A stretch of 64,000 nucleotides of DNA from Dehalococcoidia bacterium (GCA_965223945.1 CBDCXW010000001.1:320207-384206); one strand, 5' to 3'. Positions 58,387-64,000 are shown, counted from the stretch's first letter. Notes: generated by a model from the letters alone, not told the origin. Translations and numbers: made by a program.

Positions 58387-60249
58387 GTGTTTGTAGTCGG
58401 CACCGCCGGCCATGTCGATCACGGTAAGTCCACACTCGTACAGGCGTTGACGGGCATAGACCCAGACCGCCTCAAGGCCGAGAAAGAGCGGGGGATGACC
58501 ATCGACCTCGGCTTCGCCTGGCTACAGCTGCCGAGCGGCAACGAGGTCAGCATCGTCGACGTTCCCGGTCACGAGCGGTTCGTAAACAACATGCTGGCCG
58601 GGGTCGGCGGCATCGACCTTGCGCTCCTGGTTGTGGCGGCAGACGAGGCTGTCATGCCCCAGACCCGGGAGCATCTGGCCATACTGGACCTTCTCCACGT
58701 GAACTGTGGAATCGTCGCGGTGACCAAGAGGGACCTCGTCGATGAAGACTGGCTGGAGCTCGTCATGGCGGACGTCGAGGAGCTGATGGAGGGGACGGCC
58801 CTCGAAGGCTCTCCCGTGATTGCGGTATCGGCCGTGACCCAGGAAGGGATCGACGATCTGGTCTCTACCATCGACTCTCTGCTTCAGCAGACGGAGCCCA
58901 AGCGCGACCTCGGCCGCCCGCGCTTGCCGATTGACCGCTCGTTCGCGATGTCCGGGTTCGGAACGGTTGTCACAGGCACGCTGATCGACGGCGCCCTTGA
59001 CGTCGGACAGGAGGCCGATCTCGTCCTGTCAGGTCGGAAGACCCGAGTCAGGGGCCTGCAGGCGCATCGAAAGAGGCTCGATCACGCCGAGCCCGGCCGC
59101 AGGGTGGCTGCGAACCTGGCAGGCGTGCCGCACGACGGCATTACAAGGGGCGAGGTGTTGACTACGCCCGGCTGGCTCTCGCCGACTATGGCTGTCGATG
59201 TACGCCTGCGAGTGCTCGACCAGGCTCCAGGGCACCTCAAACACAACATGCACGTCACGCTTCACACCGGGAGCAGCGAGGTCGTCGGCAGGCTCAGGCT
59301 CCTGGAGGGCGACCGGATAGAGCCCGGAGCGGCCACTTGGGCCCAGATCAAGCTCGGCTCACCTGTGGCGGCGGCCAGAGGCGACTACTTCGTAATCAGG
59401 TCCAACCAGACGACACTCGGCGGCGGCAGCATCGTCGAGACCCATGCGAAGCGCCACCGCCGCAGCTACGCACCCACCCTCAAGCGGCTGTCTATCATGG
59501 ATGAGGGTTCAGACAGGGAGGTGTTGCTAGCCACGATCGCCTCGTCCGAACCCGCCGAGTTCACGTCGGTCGTCAACCGTGCCAACCTCCAACCAGCGGC
59601 GGCCAGAACAGCGCTCAAGGCGATGGCCGGGGAGAGGCTGGTCGTGGTCGTGGGCGTGCGGCCGCCGGGGCCTGGTGTGCGGATGTACACTGGCGCGGGC
59701 TGGGCCGCCGCAGCCGCCCGGGCACGCGAGTTCCTGGACGATTATCACCGGCAATTCCCCCTAAGGACAGGGGCGCCCAAGGAGGAGCTCCGGAGCAGAA
59801 TGGGAATGACCCCTCATATCTTCAACGATGTGATGCCACGGCTAAGGGACGAGGGAGTGCTGGCCGAGGAGGGCACGCTCGTGCGCGCCGCGGATCACCA
59901 GCCCGGCCTTACCGAGGAAGACCAGAAGATCACCCAGGCATACATAGAACTGTTGGAGGCATCTCCCTATTCCCCTCCTTCGGACTCCGGTATCGATGCG
60001 GAGCTGCTGAACCTGCTGGCGGACCAGGGAAGGGTCGTGAAAGCAAGTGACAGCATCGTGTTCGCCGCCTCCGCATACAACGAAATGGCTGATAGAATAT
60101 CCGCGCACATCAAGGAGCGAGGCGAGATCACGGTCGCGGACGTCAGGGACATGTTCGGTACGAGCCGAAAGTACGCCCTCGCGATCATGGACTACCTCGA
60201 CCATCAGCGCATAACCCGCCGCGTGGGAGACGCCAGAGTCCTGCGTTAG
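58387..60249 (+). CDS. selB: Selenocysteine-specific translation elongation factor
   Basis: 620 aa. Motifs [13 protein letters not shown] (G1), DVPGHERF (G3) and TKRD (G4), with a long C-terminal winged-helix region ([39 protein letters not shown]). Confidence 0.9.
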
Positions 60250-60269
60250 GGTCTTGCCTGGAGCCCTGC

Positions 60270-60773
60270 ATGGTAAGCGACGGCGGGCCCGTCGAGGACG
60301 GGCATATATTGGAGATCGCGCTGGACGCGGGATACCTGTCCGTGTCCAACTTCTCATCCCTGTTGCGCGTCCTTCAGGCCGCCCTACGCGCCGCTGCCCA
60401 AGGCGTCGATCCAGCTTCGGACCCGTTCTCCGTGCCCCCCTACCCGGTGCTGCGAATGTTTGCCACAAGAGAAGACGACGGTCTAGTGCTGCGGCTCGCC
60501 TTCTTCGACCCGTTGGACTCCAGCACGCTGGACGACCTCTGTGAGAGGACTTTCGTTTTCTTCCTCGACAGGCTTTCGGAGTTGATAAAGAGACTCCCGC
60601 AGCGAGGTCTCTGGGGAGAGTCGGTCGCGAGTGCACAGGTCAGAATAGGTGATTCGGAGGTGACGAAGCGACTCGACCAGGTCCGCATCGAGCTGAGGCG
60701 CCTCGGCCGGGCGCGCGTGAGATTCGCGGGGCGGACGGTCACCTTCGACGGGGACAGGGTGGAGCTAGGCTAG
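60270..60773 (+). CDS. Hypothetical protein, first gene of the NurA/HerA-type operon
   Basis: 167 aa with no motif I recognise. It starts 20 nt after the selB stop, and its stop lies 1 nt before the next start. Confidence 0.55.
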   Translation: MVSDGGPVEDGHILEIALDAGYLSVSNFSSLLRVLQAALRAAAQGVDPASDPFSVPPYPVLRMFATREDDGLVLRLAFFDPLDSSTLDDLCERTFVFFLDRLSELIKRLPQRGLWGESVASAQVRIGDSEVTKRLDQVRIELRRLGRARVRFAGRTVTFDGDRVELG

Positions 60774-60774
60774 C

Positions 60775-61989
60775 GTGCCCCTAGACCTTGGCAACACGGC
60801 CATGCAGATAGACCGGATGGCCGCCGGTCTCAAGACCCGGGTGGATGAGAAGCGCCGCCGCCTGGAAAGGGCGCTCGAAACGGCCCGCGCCTTCGACTCG
60901 GACTCGTACGAGGACACGCGCCTCCACGACCGGAAGACAATGGCTTGGAGCCTCCCATCCGCGCGGGGCAGTCCCGGGGAGGCATATCCGGCCCCGCCTC
61001 CACCCGAAGATTACCGCGTGATAGCGACGGACGGCTCCGACATCGGCACGGACAGAAACATCCCGGCCCGGTGCTATGTAATTAACATCGGGGTCTCGTC
61101 CCTGACGTACGGCTCCGGCTCCCATGCGGAGCTAAGCAGCCGCGCCCGTCTGTACGCCCGCGATGAAGAGCTCTTTATCCGGGACGGAGACGCTCCCTTT
61201 CGACAGGTCGGCATCGAGGGCACCGTGCTGGCCGCAAAGCGCATGGCAGAGGAGGCCATGACGCTTGCAGAGACCGTTGCCTTGTCCCCCACGAGCCTGC
61301 CAACTCTCGCCATCATGGACGGCTCACTGATCATGCTCGGCGTGGCCAGTCACGGTTACGACGACTACGTGCGGCGGGAGCTGGTCGACAACGGCATAGT
61401 AAGGGCGCTTAACAGGCTCAGGAGGCTGTCGGACACCAGGCCATTGATGGTGGCTAGTTACGTGAGCATGCCCGGCGGTACGGACGTGGCCAACGCCCTG
61501 CGGCTGGCGGCGTGTCCATACGATACCGCCGATTGCGAACGGCACTGCGGTGGGACTGCACCCGGCGATCGGCCCTGCGACGCCGCAGCGATGGGGATAG
61601 TAGACCGGGATCTGTTCTGGGAAGTCCTGGAGCCGGGACAGCGGTCCGCCGTGTTCGGCAGCTCGTCGGCCCTGGTTGCCAACCACTACGCCGAACACGA
61701 GGTCCACTTCTTCTACGTCCACGCCGGAGTCGAGATCGGCCGCGTGGAGATACCTGTGTGGGTAGCGGACGACGAACGGCTTCTCGACCTGACCCACTCT
61801 CTTGTGCTCGATCAGTGCTCCCGCGGTCCTGGTTACCCTGTGGCCCTGATGGAGGCCCACGAGCAGGCGGTTATCACAGCCTCCGACCGGCGCCTGTTCG
61901 CCGAACAGCTAATGTCGGCCCTTGAAGAGCAGTCGCTGCCGGCCTACACATCGGAAAAGAGCCGTTCGAAGCGGCTGAGGTGGATCTGA
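60775..61989 (+). CDS. NurA-like nuclease
   Basis: 404 aa with YRVIATDGSDIG, LAIMDGSLIMLG and GPGYPVALMEAHEQAVIT, matching the NurA pattern (DGS acidic motifs and the C-terminal YP..L..AH..A). GTG start at 60775; ATG 60802 is an alternative. Confidence 0.7.
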   Translation: MPLDLGNTAMQIDRMAAGLKTRVDEKRRRLERALETARAFDSDSYEDTRLHDRKTMAWSLPSARGSPGEAYPAPPPPEDYRVIATDGSDIGTDRNIPARCYVINIGVSSLTYGSGSHAELSSRARLYARDEELFIRDGDAPFRQVGIEGTVLAAKRMAEEAMTLAETVALSPTSLPTLAIMDGSLIMLGVASHGYDDYVRRELVDNGIVRALNRLRRLSDTRPLMVASYVSMPGGTDVANALRLAACPYDTADCERHCGGTAPGDRPCDAAAMGIVDRDLFWEVLEPGQRSAVFGSSSALVANHYAEHEVHFFYVHAGVEIGRVEIPVWVADDERLLDLTHSLVLDQCSRGPGYPVALMEAHEQAVITASDRRLFAEQLMSALEEQSLPAYTSEKSRSKRLRWI

Positions 61990-62020
61990 TGCCTACACCG
62001 CAACCGACAGAGAGCCAGGG

Positions 62021-62614
62021 ATGAGCCCGGGCATGGGCAGCCGTCTCGGCGAGGTGGTGGAGGCATCGACAGACGGCTTCTCCGTCGAGTGCTACGGACT
62101 GTACGATGCGCCGCCGCTGGGCGCGCTCGTGCGCTGCAGCGAGGGCAGCCCTATCTACGGCGTCGTCGGCCAGGTGGCGACGACCAGCCTCGACCCCTCC
62201 CGCCGCCCAATCGCCCGCGGCCGACGCGAGGATACGGAGGAAGCCGTATACCGGAGCAACCCGCAGCTTGAGCGCCTGCTGCGCACCGAGTTTCGAGCGC
62301 TGGTCGTCGGTCATGCCCTGGGCGGCAGGACAATGCGGTTCCTGGCGCCCGCACCGCCCAGGATACACGCCTTCGTCTACCCCTGCGCCAGTGACGAGGT
62401 GCGAGCATTCACCTCCTCTCTTGAGTTCCTGCCGCTCCTTCTGTCCGCCCCGATAGGCTCACCCGATGACATCGTCGCTTCGTTCGTCAGGCAGGCGAGC
62501 GCACACCACCCGGAGCCCAGGGAGTTCCTGGTGGAAGCTGGGCAGGAGATCGCAACCCTCCTGGGACGTGACACGCAGCGCCTGAACGGACTGCTGAAGA
62601 GGCTCTCTCCATGA
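62021..62614 (+). CDS. Hypothetical protein with a possible stand-alone HAS-barrel-like N-terminus
   Basis: 197 aa. The N-terminus LGEVVEASTDGFSVECYGLYDAPPLGALVRCSEGSPIYGVVGQV resembles the N-terminal barrel of HerA-type ATPases. The stop overlaps the next start (ATGA at 62611-62614). Confidence 0.5.
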   Translation: MSPGMGSRLGEVVEASTDGFSVECYGLYDAPPLGALVRCSEGSPIYGVVGQVATTSLDPSRRPIARGRREDTEEAVYRSNPQLERLLRTEFRALVVGHALGGRTMRFLAPAPPRIHAFVYPCASDEVRAFTSSLEFLPLLLSAPIGSPDDIVASFVRQASAHHPEPREFLVEAGQEIATLLGRDTQRLNGLLKRLSP

Positions 62615-64000
62615 AAGACTCCCTGGCTGGGGACCGGCTCGGAATGGTGGTCAAGGGCTCACTGACGGACGGGTTGAAGGTCCGGCTGGACCGCAATGTC
62701 GAAATAGAGGACATCAAGGTCGGGAGGTACGTCACCATACAGGGCAAGCTGATGCGGTTCTTTGCCGTGGTCAGCGACGTATCGCTGGAGACTTCGGACC
62801 CATCCATGGGTTCCAGCCCACCCGACGTGTCCGACCCGTTCATCGCGGAGGTAGTCCAGGGAACGACCGCGTTTGGAGCCATGGACGTGGAGCCGATGCT
62901 GGCGCTGGGCAGCGATCCGCTAACAATGGGCGATGGGCCGCAGCCGGCCAAGACCGTCCCGCCCCACTTCTCGCCCGTCCAGCTCGCCTCGGAGGGCGAC
63001 GTGCAGCTGGTGTTCGGCGAGGAGGACGACCGCCACTTCTGGATAGGCAGCCCCCTCGACATGGAGACGAGGCTCTGTCTGGACATGCCGGAGCTCGTGA
63101 TGCGCAGCAACGGCGTCTTTGGGAAGAGCGGCACCGGCAAGACCTTCCTCACGAGGCTTCTGCTCGCCGGAATCCTCCAGAACGGAGCCGCATCCAACCT
63201 GGTCTTCGACATGCAGAGCGAGTATGGCTGGAAGGGGTACAGCGAGGACTCGCGCGAGGTGAAGGGCCTCAAGCAGCTCTTCCCGTCCAAGGTCTCGGTC
63301 TTCTCGCTGGACGAGGAGAGCTCCCGGCGGCGGGGGCTCACGCCGGACTACGTGGTGCGAATAGGCTTCGACGAGATCGAGCCGGAGGACATCCAGATGC
63401 TGAGGGAGAGCCTGAACCTCTCCGAGGTCGCTGCCGACGCGTCCTATTCGCTTCAGCGCCACTTCGGAAAGGAGTGGCTCTCCCGCTTCCTGGGACACCC
63501 CGCGGGAGACGAGTTCGGAGAGCTGGCGAAGGCGCTCAACGTGAACGAAGGTGCTCTCGGCACGCTCAAGAGGAGGCTGTCCAGGCTTGAGCGCTTCGGA
63601 TTCATGGACCGCGGAGCCGGAGGCCACGACTCAGTCGGTCAGGTGCTACAGCGCCTGGACAGGGGGATGCACGTGGTGCTGGAGTTTGGACGCTACGGCA
63701 GCGACATTGCTGCATACGTCCTCGTCGCCAACCTGCTGACCCGACGCATCTACGAGCGGTACCAGAGAGCGACCGAGATGGCGATGGGGGACGAGGGCAG
63801 GGAGCCCAGGCCCCTGGTGATAACTATCGAAGAGGCCCACAAGTTCCTGAACCCCGGCGTCGCCGGACAGACCAGCTTCGGGACCATTGCCAGAGAGATG
63901 CGCAAGTACAACGTCACCCTGCTAGTCGTCGACCAGCGGCCCAGCGGAATCGACGAGGAGGTGATGAGCCAACTCGGAACCAAGATTGCCTGCCTGCTGG
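62611..64000 (+). CDS. HerA/FtsK-class (DUF87-type) hexameric ATPase, 3'-truncated by the window end
   Basis: I translated 62611-64000 by hand and found 463 codons without a stop. It has an N-terminal barrel (LGMVVKGSLTDGLKVRLD...VGRYVTIQG), Walker A FGKSGTGKTFL (63118-63150), Walker B PLVITIEEAHKF and REMRKYNVTLLVVDQRPSGIDEEV. It is not in the supplied track because no stop is reached. Confidence 0.8.
   Translation, partial: MKDSLAGDRLGMVVKGSLTDGLKVRLDRNVEIEDIKVGRYVTIQGKLMRFFAVVSDVSLETSDPSMGSSPPDVSDPFIAEVVQGTTAFGAMDVEPMLALGSDPLTMGDGPQPAKTVPPHFSPVQLASEGDVQLVFGEEDDRHFWIGSPLDMETRLCLDMPELVMRSNGVFGKSGTGKTFLTRLLLAGILQNGAASNLVFDMQSEYGWKGYSEDSREVKGLKQLFPSKVSVFSLDEESSRRRGLTPDYVVRIGFDEIEPEDIQMLRESLNLSEVAADASYSLQRHFGKEWLSRFLGHPAGDEFGELAKALNVNEGALGTLKRRLSRLERFGFMDRGAGGHDSVGQVLQRLDRGMHVVLEFGRYGSDIAAYVLVANLLTRRIYERYQRATEMAMGDEGREPRPLVITIEEAHKFLNPGVAGQTSFGTIAREMRKYNVTLLVVDQRPSGIDEEVMSQLGTKIACLL

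Follow-up and report, generated by a model that had tools for sequence, protein, structure and literature searches.

The last part of a 64,000-nucleotide stretch of DNA from a Dehalococcoidia bacterium (GCA_965223945.1, CBDCXW010000001.1:320207-384206), here called the window, carries a run of tightly packed genes on one strand: selB, an orphan gene of 167 codons (gene (i)), nurA, a gene of 197 codons (gene (iii)) and herA. This region is probably a bacterial NurA-HerA operon for the processing of DNA ends, in which, by analogy with known complexes, the product of gene (iii) would be a third subunit acting as adaptor or gate. NurA-HerA is the textbook end-resection machine of archaea. It is established for the family that a HerA hexamer translocates duplex DNA and that a NurA dimer on its HAS-barrel face degrades the 5′ strand. 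To our knowledge a single bacterial NurA-HerA has been studied, and all mechanistic models are two-component, with NurA placed on the barrel that is built into HerA. A conserved separate barrel gene that lies between nurA and herA in several lineages, belonging to a family of about a thousand clusters at 50% identity, would therefore mean that bacterial machines are often three-part. The original prediction, made from the same DNA, spoke of an uncharacterised nuclease-motor system; this holds for the extra conserved subunit and for the nurA-barrel pairs described below, which are new, but not for the machine itself, since the two enzymes are the known NurA and HerA.

The nuclease assignment comes from the Pfam model PF09376 (NurA), which the 404-residue nurA product matches at model positions 2-254 of 254 with 71.7 bits, well above the gathering cut-off of 21. 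The translated protein contains IATDGSD (residues 83-89), AIMDGSL (residues 179-185) and GYPVALMEAHEQAVIT (residues 353-368), and an alignment of 27 NurA sequences from several lineages has D86 (in IATDGS), E160, D182 (in MDGS), H362 and E363 as invariant positions, matched to the catalytic positions of solved NurAs by motif and not by superposition. Judged from its sequence, the protein is a NurA-family nuclease that keeps the invariant acidic and histidine residues. A search of the sequences in the PDB gave no match of the window NurA to any solved NurA, and a look-up of its exact sequence found no record. The NurAs of the two groups outside the Dehalococcoidia discussed below (L089-like and Dadabacteria-like) belong to the same subfamily, with 36-39% identity to the window protein.

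The ATPase belongs to the HerA class, as had been proposed from its motifs. It matches Pfam DUF87 (PF01935) with 84.9 bits against a cut-off of 23.2, and it carries Walker A (GKSGTGKT, residues 171-178), Walker B (VITIEEAH, residues 403-410) and VVDQRPS (residues 439-445), of which GKSGTGKT, IEEAH and DQRP are invariant in 23 HerA sequences. Residues 11-61 match the HAS-barrel family PF09378 at E 5.2e-4 with 20.5 bits, under the cut-off of 25.2. The same weak match is always present and always sub-threshold in its relatives, either at 24.2 bits (HerA of locus L089) or as 'weak' in precomputed matches. The protein is predicted to be a catalytically intact ring-translocase-type ATPase with its own N-terminal HAS-barrel, although the barrel score stays sub-threshold. 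Among PDB sequences the best match is the HerA of a SIR2/HerA system (8wiv, 1.2e-19), and Sulfolobus HerA is matched at 1.9e-14. The full-length 547-residue HerA of locus L081 was compared with the curated NCBIfam equivalogs, which have cut-offs of 800-970. It reached none of them, neither double-strand-break-repair HerA (NF040937 and NF040819, the archaeal equivalogs: 66.3 and 59.9 bits against 800 and 970) nor anti-phage HerA (NF042943 and NF042944: 75.9 and 52.8 bits). Because these scores are far below every curated equivalog, the window HerA appears to represent a distinct clade that is a member of no named equivalog. In one further contig (L091:3682-5429) a 97-residue open reading frame (ORF) matching the HAS-barrel (3.5e-5) is followed by a 478-residue DUF87 ORF; the most likely cause is a frameshift within a single herA, in a contig of 2.2x coverage, and not a natural split.

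The protein encoded between these two enzymes receives no name from the Pfam, NCBIfam or PADLOC libraries. An AlphaFold2 (AF2) model built from a 47-sequence alignment has a mean predicted local distance difference test score (pLDDT) of 92 and a predicted template-modelling score of 0.87, and consists of a β-barrel (residues 10-121) followed by five helices (residues 124-195). A Foldseek search of the PDB with this model returned HerA-family chains in all of the top 50 matches listed, the best at E 2e-6 and probability 1.00, with alignments of 122-151 columns and query-normalised template-modelling scores of 0.37-0.46. The best match is the Thermococcus kodakarensis HerA-NurA complex, and the others include Sulfolobus and Deinococcus HerA as well as the HerAs of DUF4297, Sir2 and Tdp systems. 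Placement on the N-terminal domain of HerA follows from the barrel topology and from the hhalign register, in which residues 4-88 fall on residues 5-83 of the clade HerA. PF09378 is matched by 25 of the 47 family members (best E 4.9e-4, printed scores below 25.2 bits), though not by the window protein at E ≤ 1, and distant relatives carry the NCBI name 'HAS-barrel domain-containing protein'. The suggestion in the original prediction that the N-terminus looks like a free-standing HAS-barrel is thus borne out by the model and fold search, the sub-threshold PF09378 matches and the names of distant relatives. PF09378 is the N-terminal domain of HerA and of the F1/V1 ATP synthase alpha and beta subunits; the predicted barrel of gene (iii) superposes on the corresponding region of HerA, but here it forms a separate polypeptide that, according to the model, continues in a family-specific helical tail of about 75 residues.

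An exhaustive profile search found at least 1,019 clusters of this family (50% identity), with E ≤ 1e-10 for 695, and nearly all of the 150 clusters listed are stand-alone proteins of about 200 residues. The family is thus large, unnamed, spread over several phyla and without a Pfam family of its own. Its size bears on the idea that gene (iii) is a functionless, decaying N-terminal remnant of a duplicated herA. A remnant would explain why the fold resembles the N-terminal part of HerA and why the gene lies directly upstream of herA, but the conservation data refute it: the ratio of nonsynonymous to synonymous substitution rates (dN/dS) is 0.18, the length stays within 190-216 residues in 64 loci, 21 residues are invariant, the model is compact and of high confidence with its own helical domain, and the gene also occurs with nurA in the absence of herA. 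Gene fission, by which the barrel would have split off from HerA, was rejected as well, because HerA appears to retain its own barrel.

Two neighbourhood surveys, covering 81 loci from Dehalococcoidia and, in metagenomes, 80 from other lineages, place gene (iii) between nurA and herA in most loci and far beyond the window genome, in line with the expectation that it would be conserved beside the pair. Gene (iii) and herA are both visible in 62 Dehalococcoidia loci, and in every one the former lies directly upstream of the latter, never with an intervening gene; 45 of these loci have a distance of zero or less, mostly −4. The spacer between nurA and gene (iii) ranges from −10 to 2,083 nucleotides. 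It is an insertion hot spot (L037:9217-10805, L048:6292-7974, L046:9409-9891, L088:6788-9735) with cargo that varies by genome: GNAT with a HepT/MNT toxin-antitoxin pair, the GmrSD restriction enzyme, DUF805, or MNT/HEPN with a CoA ligase. In one genome the cluster is split: gene (iii) and HerA, which still overlap, lie on the same contig as SelB, gene (i) and NurA but about 45 kb from them.

Outside the Dehalococcoidia the linkage takes two forms. Among 36 loci of the L089-like subfamily with enough flanking sequence, 29 have the order NurA, gene (iii), HerA, two have gene (iii) with HerA, two have NurA with gene (iii), and three have gene (iii) alone. In the Dadabacteria/Thermodesulfobacteriota-like subfamily nurA overlaps gene (iii) in 27 of 27 loci, and no herA is found downstream in any of the 18 loci with at least 2 kb visible, eight of which show 10 kb. 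Pairs of nurA and gene (iii) without a nearby herA are also seen in Pfam-annotated examples. The conserved core comprises three genes; in one large subfamily it consists of two, nurA and the barrel gene. The loci of this subfamily are L098-L125, L082, L083, L086 and L087, with no herA within up to 10 kb, and chaperonin genes adjoin the nurA-barrel pair in two of them (groEL in L086, groES-groEL in L087). In a mirror-tree comparison of 50 loci the distances of NurA, gene (iii) and HerA correlate beyond what SelB accounts for (partial r 0.68-0.72), and a four-gene partial-correlation matrix gives 0.47 for gene (iii) with NurA, slightly above the 0.35 for gene (iii) with HerA.

Two published observations connect the fold to a function. 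Sulfolobus HerA without its HAS domain loses NurA binding (PMC3326311), and the HAS-barrel of Deinococcus HerA (drHerA) mediates the interaction with NurA (PMC9960219). Since published work places the NurA-docking surface of HerA on the HAS-barrel, the product of gene (iii) is probably a NurA-binding adaptor or regulator, and the combination of a docking-module fold with genetic ties to herA in the Dehalococcoidia and to nurA in the Dadabacteria-like loci suggests a third subunit. By analogy with the Sulfolobus and Deinococcus complexes, the HerA hexamer would pump double-stranded DNA into the NurA dimer seated on its barrel face, and the dimer would resect the 5′ strand. The product of gene (iii) would bind NurA through its barrel and contact HerA, probably through the helical tail, and it would serve as an adaptor or gate, coupling the nuclease or holding it back.

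The same module could also work in the opposite sense, as a decoy or inhibitor that covers the face by which the NurA dimer docks to HerA and holds the nuclease away from the motor, or inactive, until there is damage; where a lineage has nurA and the barrel gene only, it would then be a constitutive partner of NurA. That the barrel is the NurA-binding module of known complexes, that a second barrel could compete with the one that HerA appears to keep, that the Dadabacteria-like loci have overlapping pairs and no herA, and that the partial correlation with NurA is the slightly larger one would all fit such a role. However, in the Dehalococcoidia translation of gene (iii) is coupled to that of herA, and where the cluster is split the gene has stayed with herA and not with nurA, and the conserved helical tail suggests a second interface. 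We therefore regard the decoy as unlikely.

Several observations weigh against the main reading as well. HerA appears to have its own barrel, so an extra one is not obviously needed for docking of NurA. The similarity between gene (iii) and HerA is marginal in sequence (hhalign E 0.035, probability 1.5%, and no match of the gene (iii) profile to PDB sequences even at E ≤ 10), and the helical tail has no identified relative. The HerA itself is far from every curated equivalog, and both its best NCBIfam model and its best PDB sequence match are of the defence type. The co-evolution of NurA, gene (iii) and HerA is suggestive, the distances being non-independent. Five barrel genes (L084, L085, L146, L150 and L151) show no nurA or herA in the 7-10 kb to each side, with a full 10 kb for L084, L146, L150 and L151; given these few lone members, the link of the family to the nuclease-motor pair is not a strict one. 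Finally, we infer end resection by NurA from homology, and the contacts of gene (iii) with NurA and HerA from analogy to the known complexes. Two of the five lone barrel genes, L084 and L085, are from Armatimonadota.

Comparison with described systems indicates what is particular to the three-gene arrangement. The Deinococcus radiodurans NurA-HerA (PMC9960219; 7wrw, 7wrx, 7f6d) is likewise encoded by a bacterial chromosomal nurA-herA operon. Its HerA consists of a HAS-barrel, a RecA-like ATPase domain and a helix bundle, with NurA docked on the barrel face, and its chains are matched by the gene (iii) model at E 3e-5 to 4e-4. That system has two genes, deleted 'as an operon', and no third barrel protein, whereas the window operon has one. 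In addition, drHerA is not among the PDB sequence matches of the window HerA, and the window NurA differs by a four-cysteine insertion. The archaeal systems (Sulfolobus 4d2i; Thermococcus kodakarensis 9x1l and 9x1m) use the same two enzyme families, and their HerAs provide the Sulfolobus sequence match and the best fold match mentioned above. They are encoded with mre11-rad50, whereas the window operon lies beside selB and housekeeping genes and contains a separate barrel gene; no mre11 or rad50 is present within 10 kb in L081, L096 or L097, nor in the upstream region of the window.

A literature search found no description of a stand-alone HAS-barrel partner of NurA and HerA or of the three-gene arrangement, in agreement with the earlier statement that no described architecture was known with both an extra leading protein and a separate barrel gene between nurA and herA. 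Iyer et al. 2004, who reportedly defined the HAS-barrel, may contain a prior mention. A stronger proposal can be formulated: the stand-alone barrel would be an obligatory third subunit of a NurA-barrel-HerA machine in several phyla, forming the physical nuclease-motor interface as a second collar or adaptor, and in the Dadabacteria/Thermodesulfobacteriota-like subfamily it would form with NurA a motor-independent two-protein nuclease. We put this forward tentatively, as something possible and not yet probable. The pairs of nurA and barrel gene without a nearby herA in any case raise the question whether NurA can work without a motor. For the abundant uncultured ocean bacteria of the SAR202/Dehalococcoidia group, the operon provides a defined candidate pathway for double-strand-break processing.

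HerA-class motors also serve in anti-phage systems (Sir2-HerA/Nezha, DUF4297-HerA, TdpAB), which likewise combine a hexameric ATPase with an effector and whose HerAs turn up both in the fold search with gene (iii) and in the sequence search with the ATPase. The original prediction had left repair and defence side by side. If the cluster were such a system, NurA would be the effector and genes (i) and (iii) would encode sensors or regulators. The best NCBIfam match of the full-length HerA is indeed HerA_antiphage, the best PDB sequence match comes from a SIR2/HerA system, PADLOC HerA models match the ATPase, and toxin-antitoxin and GmrSD genes are inserted between nurA and gene (iii) in some relatives. 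The matches to defence models are partial and far below the cut-offs, however (75.9 bits against 800). PADLOC has no match for NurA, gene (i) or gene (iii) and its models match no partner of the ATPase; no Sir2 or DUF4297 effector gene is adjacent, and the effector here would be NurA and not Sir2, DUF4297 or TdpB. The inserted defence-type genes are not the same from genome to genome, and they break up the cluster without being part of it. In contrast to the anti-phage systems, this is a stable, vertically inherited locus with housekeeping genes on its flanks (SecDF, CCA-adding enzyme, peptide deformylase, DAHP synthase and GlnA). The gene selB is found upstream of nurA in most of the 81 Dehalococcoidia loci, with SelB identity down to 47%, and this synteny is conserved and co-evolving across the whole class. 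Because of the class-wide selB synteny, the housekeeping flanks and the absence of PADLOC matches for genes (i)-(iii), repair is favoured over defence, and an anti-phage function appears highly unlikely. In most Dehalococcoidia loci (L001-L081) selB points in the same direction as nurA and is packed closely against it, either directly or with gene (i) in between, and why a selenocysteine elongation factor should be encoded in one operon with a nuclease is not obvious from their functions.

Gene (i) stands apart from the core. The four genes from gene (i) to herA had been presented as one system, but they do not form a conserved four-gene system, because gene (i) is present in 32 of the 81 loci from Dehalococcoidia and missing from all 80 of the other lineages. 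Its family comprises 35 clusters only, all of about 165 residues. As had been noted, the protein has no recognisable motif: it belongs to no Pfam, NCBIfam or PADLOC family, no family recurs in a Pfam scan of its 35-36 relatives, and its AF2 model (pLDDT 83) has no fold match in the PDB (best E 0.056). A weak YbcJ/S4-like NCBIfam match (E 0.014) was rejected as it was not reproduced. Gene (i) is a lineage-specific accessory and not a core subunit, and its membership in the nuclease system is unproven.

It may lie outside that system, as a selB-associated or independent gene in a variable slot between selB and nurA. Such a position would agree with its restricted distribution, including its absence from all 80 other-lineage loci that have NurA and gene (iii), with or without HerA; with the finding that this slot may be empty or, in L088, taken by a Zincin_2 gene; and with insertions of 0.6-1.9 kb in L016, L029, L030, L035 and L060 that part gene (i) from nurA and leave it beside selB. 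Yet the gene is separated from nurA by 0-70 nucleotides or overlaps it in about 27 of 32 loci, including distant ones at 24-32% identity, it is always found between selB and nurA if the sequence upstream can be seen, and it remains beside NurA when gene (iii) and HerA are elsewhere. We consider a role outside the nuclease system a real possibility, somewhat short of an even chance. The most conserved feature of the protein is PQRGLWG, in which P110, Q111, L114, W115 and G116 are invariant. It lies at the start of a predicted disordered loop (block-mean pLDDT 53-57 over residues 111-130, with residues 117-125 below 50) in a protein that is ordered elsewhere, and is a candidate short docking motif. 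As a speculation, the form Q-x-x-L-aromatic recalls docking peptides such as β-clamp-binding motifs.

The layout of the locus had been described correctly. Four same-strand genes follow closely on selB at the positions collected in the table, the first three as ORFs in the ORF listing of the window; the ATPase appears only upon translation from 62611, as a frame of 463 codons that is open to the window edge, because ORFs crossing that edge go unlisted. The selB stop at 60249 is followed by GGAG and then by the ATG of gene (i), with 20 nucleotides between the genes. The junction of gene (i) and nurA reads TAG-C-GTG (60771-60777), a 1-nucleotide gap, and 31 nucleotides separate nurA from the ATG of gene (iii) at 62021. 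These gaps and the ATGA overlap are read directly in the sequence, as are all NurA and ATPase motifs quoted earlier in the translated proteins. A purine-rich Shine-Dalgarno-like run precedes each of the four starts. A promoter and terminator scan gave chance-level counts and no internal signal on the + strand that would split the operon.

Features of the operon region, with positions in the window
Feature	Position	Strand	Basis or remark
selB (selenocysteine elongation factor)	58387..60249	+	Pfam GTP_EFTU 3.9e-36, SelB wing and barrel domains; context gene
Gene (i), 167-aa orphan alpha/beta protein	60270..60773	+	lineage-restricted accessory between selB and nurA
PQRGLWG loop motif of gene (i), aa 110-116	60597..60617	+	near-invariant in alignment
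nurA, 404 aa, GTG start	60775..61989	+	Pfam NurA 8.6e-20
NurA four-cysteine insertion, aa 247-268 (C247, C253, C257, C268)	61513..61578	+	alignment of 27 NurAs
Gene (iii), 197 aa, predicted stand-alone HAS-barrel with five-helix tail	62021..62614	+	AF2 model, fold search
ATGA stop/start overlap, gene (iii)/herA	62611..62614	+	sequence reading; couples gene (iii) to herA
herA, first 463 of 547 codons	62611..64000	+	Pfam DUF87 1.1e-23; HerA/FtsK-class hexameric ATPase
herA motifs	Walker A 63121-63144, Walker B 63817-63840, VVDQRPS 63925-63945	+	sequence

The dN/dS values against a close relative are 0.10 for gene (i), 0.14 for nurA and 0.06 for herA, besides the value for gene (iii) given above; all four genes are under purifying selection and the small ORFs are real genes. 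On the opposite strand, long ORFs of 178-284 residues lie over them (59842-60636, 61324-61860, 62487-63341 and 62920-63627). The last two were the only ORFs listed over the ATPase, as had been observed, and all are typical shadow frames of DNA with 64% GC, not genes.

An extension beyond the window edge, which the original prediction had called for, is provided by contig L096, which shares 95.3% identity with the window across 8 kb. Its genes follow the order of the window (SecDF, CCA-adding enzyme, peptide deformylase, epimerase, DAHP synthase, ABM, SelB, gene (i), NurA, gene (iii), HerA), and its HerA is 96.5% identical to that of the window over 463 residues and supplies the missing 84. Since the L096 HerA has 547 residues and a convergent NHL-repeat gene and glnA come next, herA is the last gene of the operon, and only its final 84 codons are missing from the window. 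The GC content of the region is that of the rest of the window, and the relatives of NurA are almost all from Chloroflexota/Dehalococcoidia and SAR202 metagenome-assembled genomes. Together with the NurA-HerA reading as a whole, it is likely that the operon of selB, gene (i), nurA, gene (iii) and herA is chromosomal and vertically inherited in a SAR202-like member of the Dehalococcoidia.

Two details of NurA deserve mention. Public gene calls begin the protein 14 codons later, at an internal ATG, giving 387-390 residues (L081:8806, L096:10548, L097:10548). The longer form with the GTG start at 60775 appears to be the real one, because its first 14 residues are conserved across lineages (M1, L3 and Q11 nearly invariant in the 27 sequences) and the GTG lies 1 nucleotide past the preceding stop; the TAG-C-GTG junction is also present in L096. 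The second detail is the cysteine insertion, with the pattern CPx5Cx3Cx10C and four cysteines in 25 of 27 sequences, which is probably a structural metal site. The words 'zinc' and 'cysteine' are both absent from the paper on the Deinococcus NurA-HerA (PMC9960219). All four cysteines are lost together in two lineages, and where the second (C253) is lost, a replacement cysteine appears three residues past the fourth (PCxxC).

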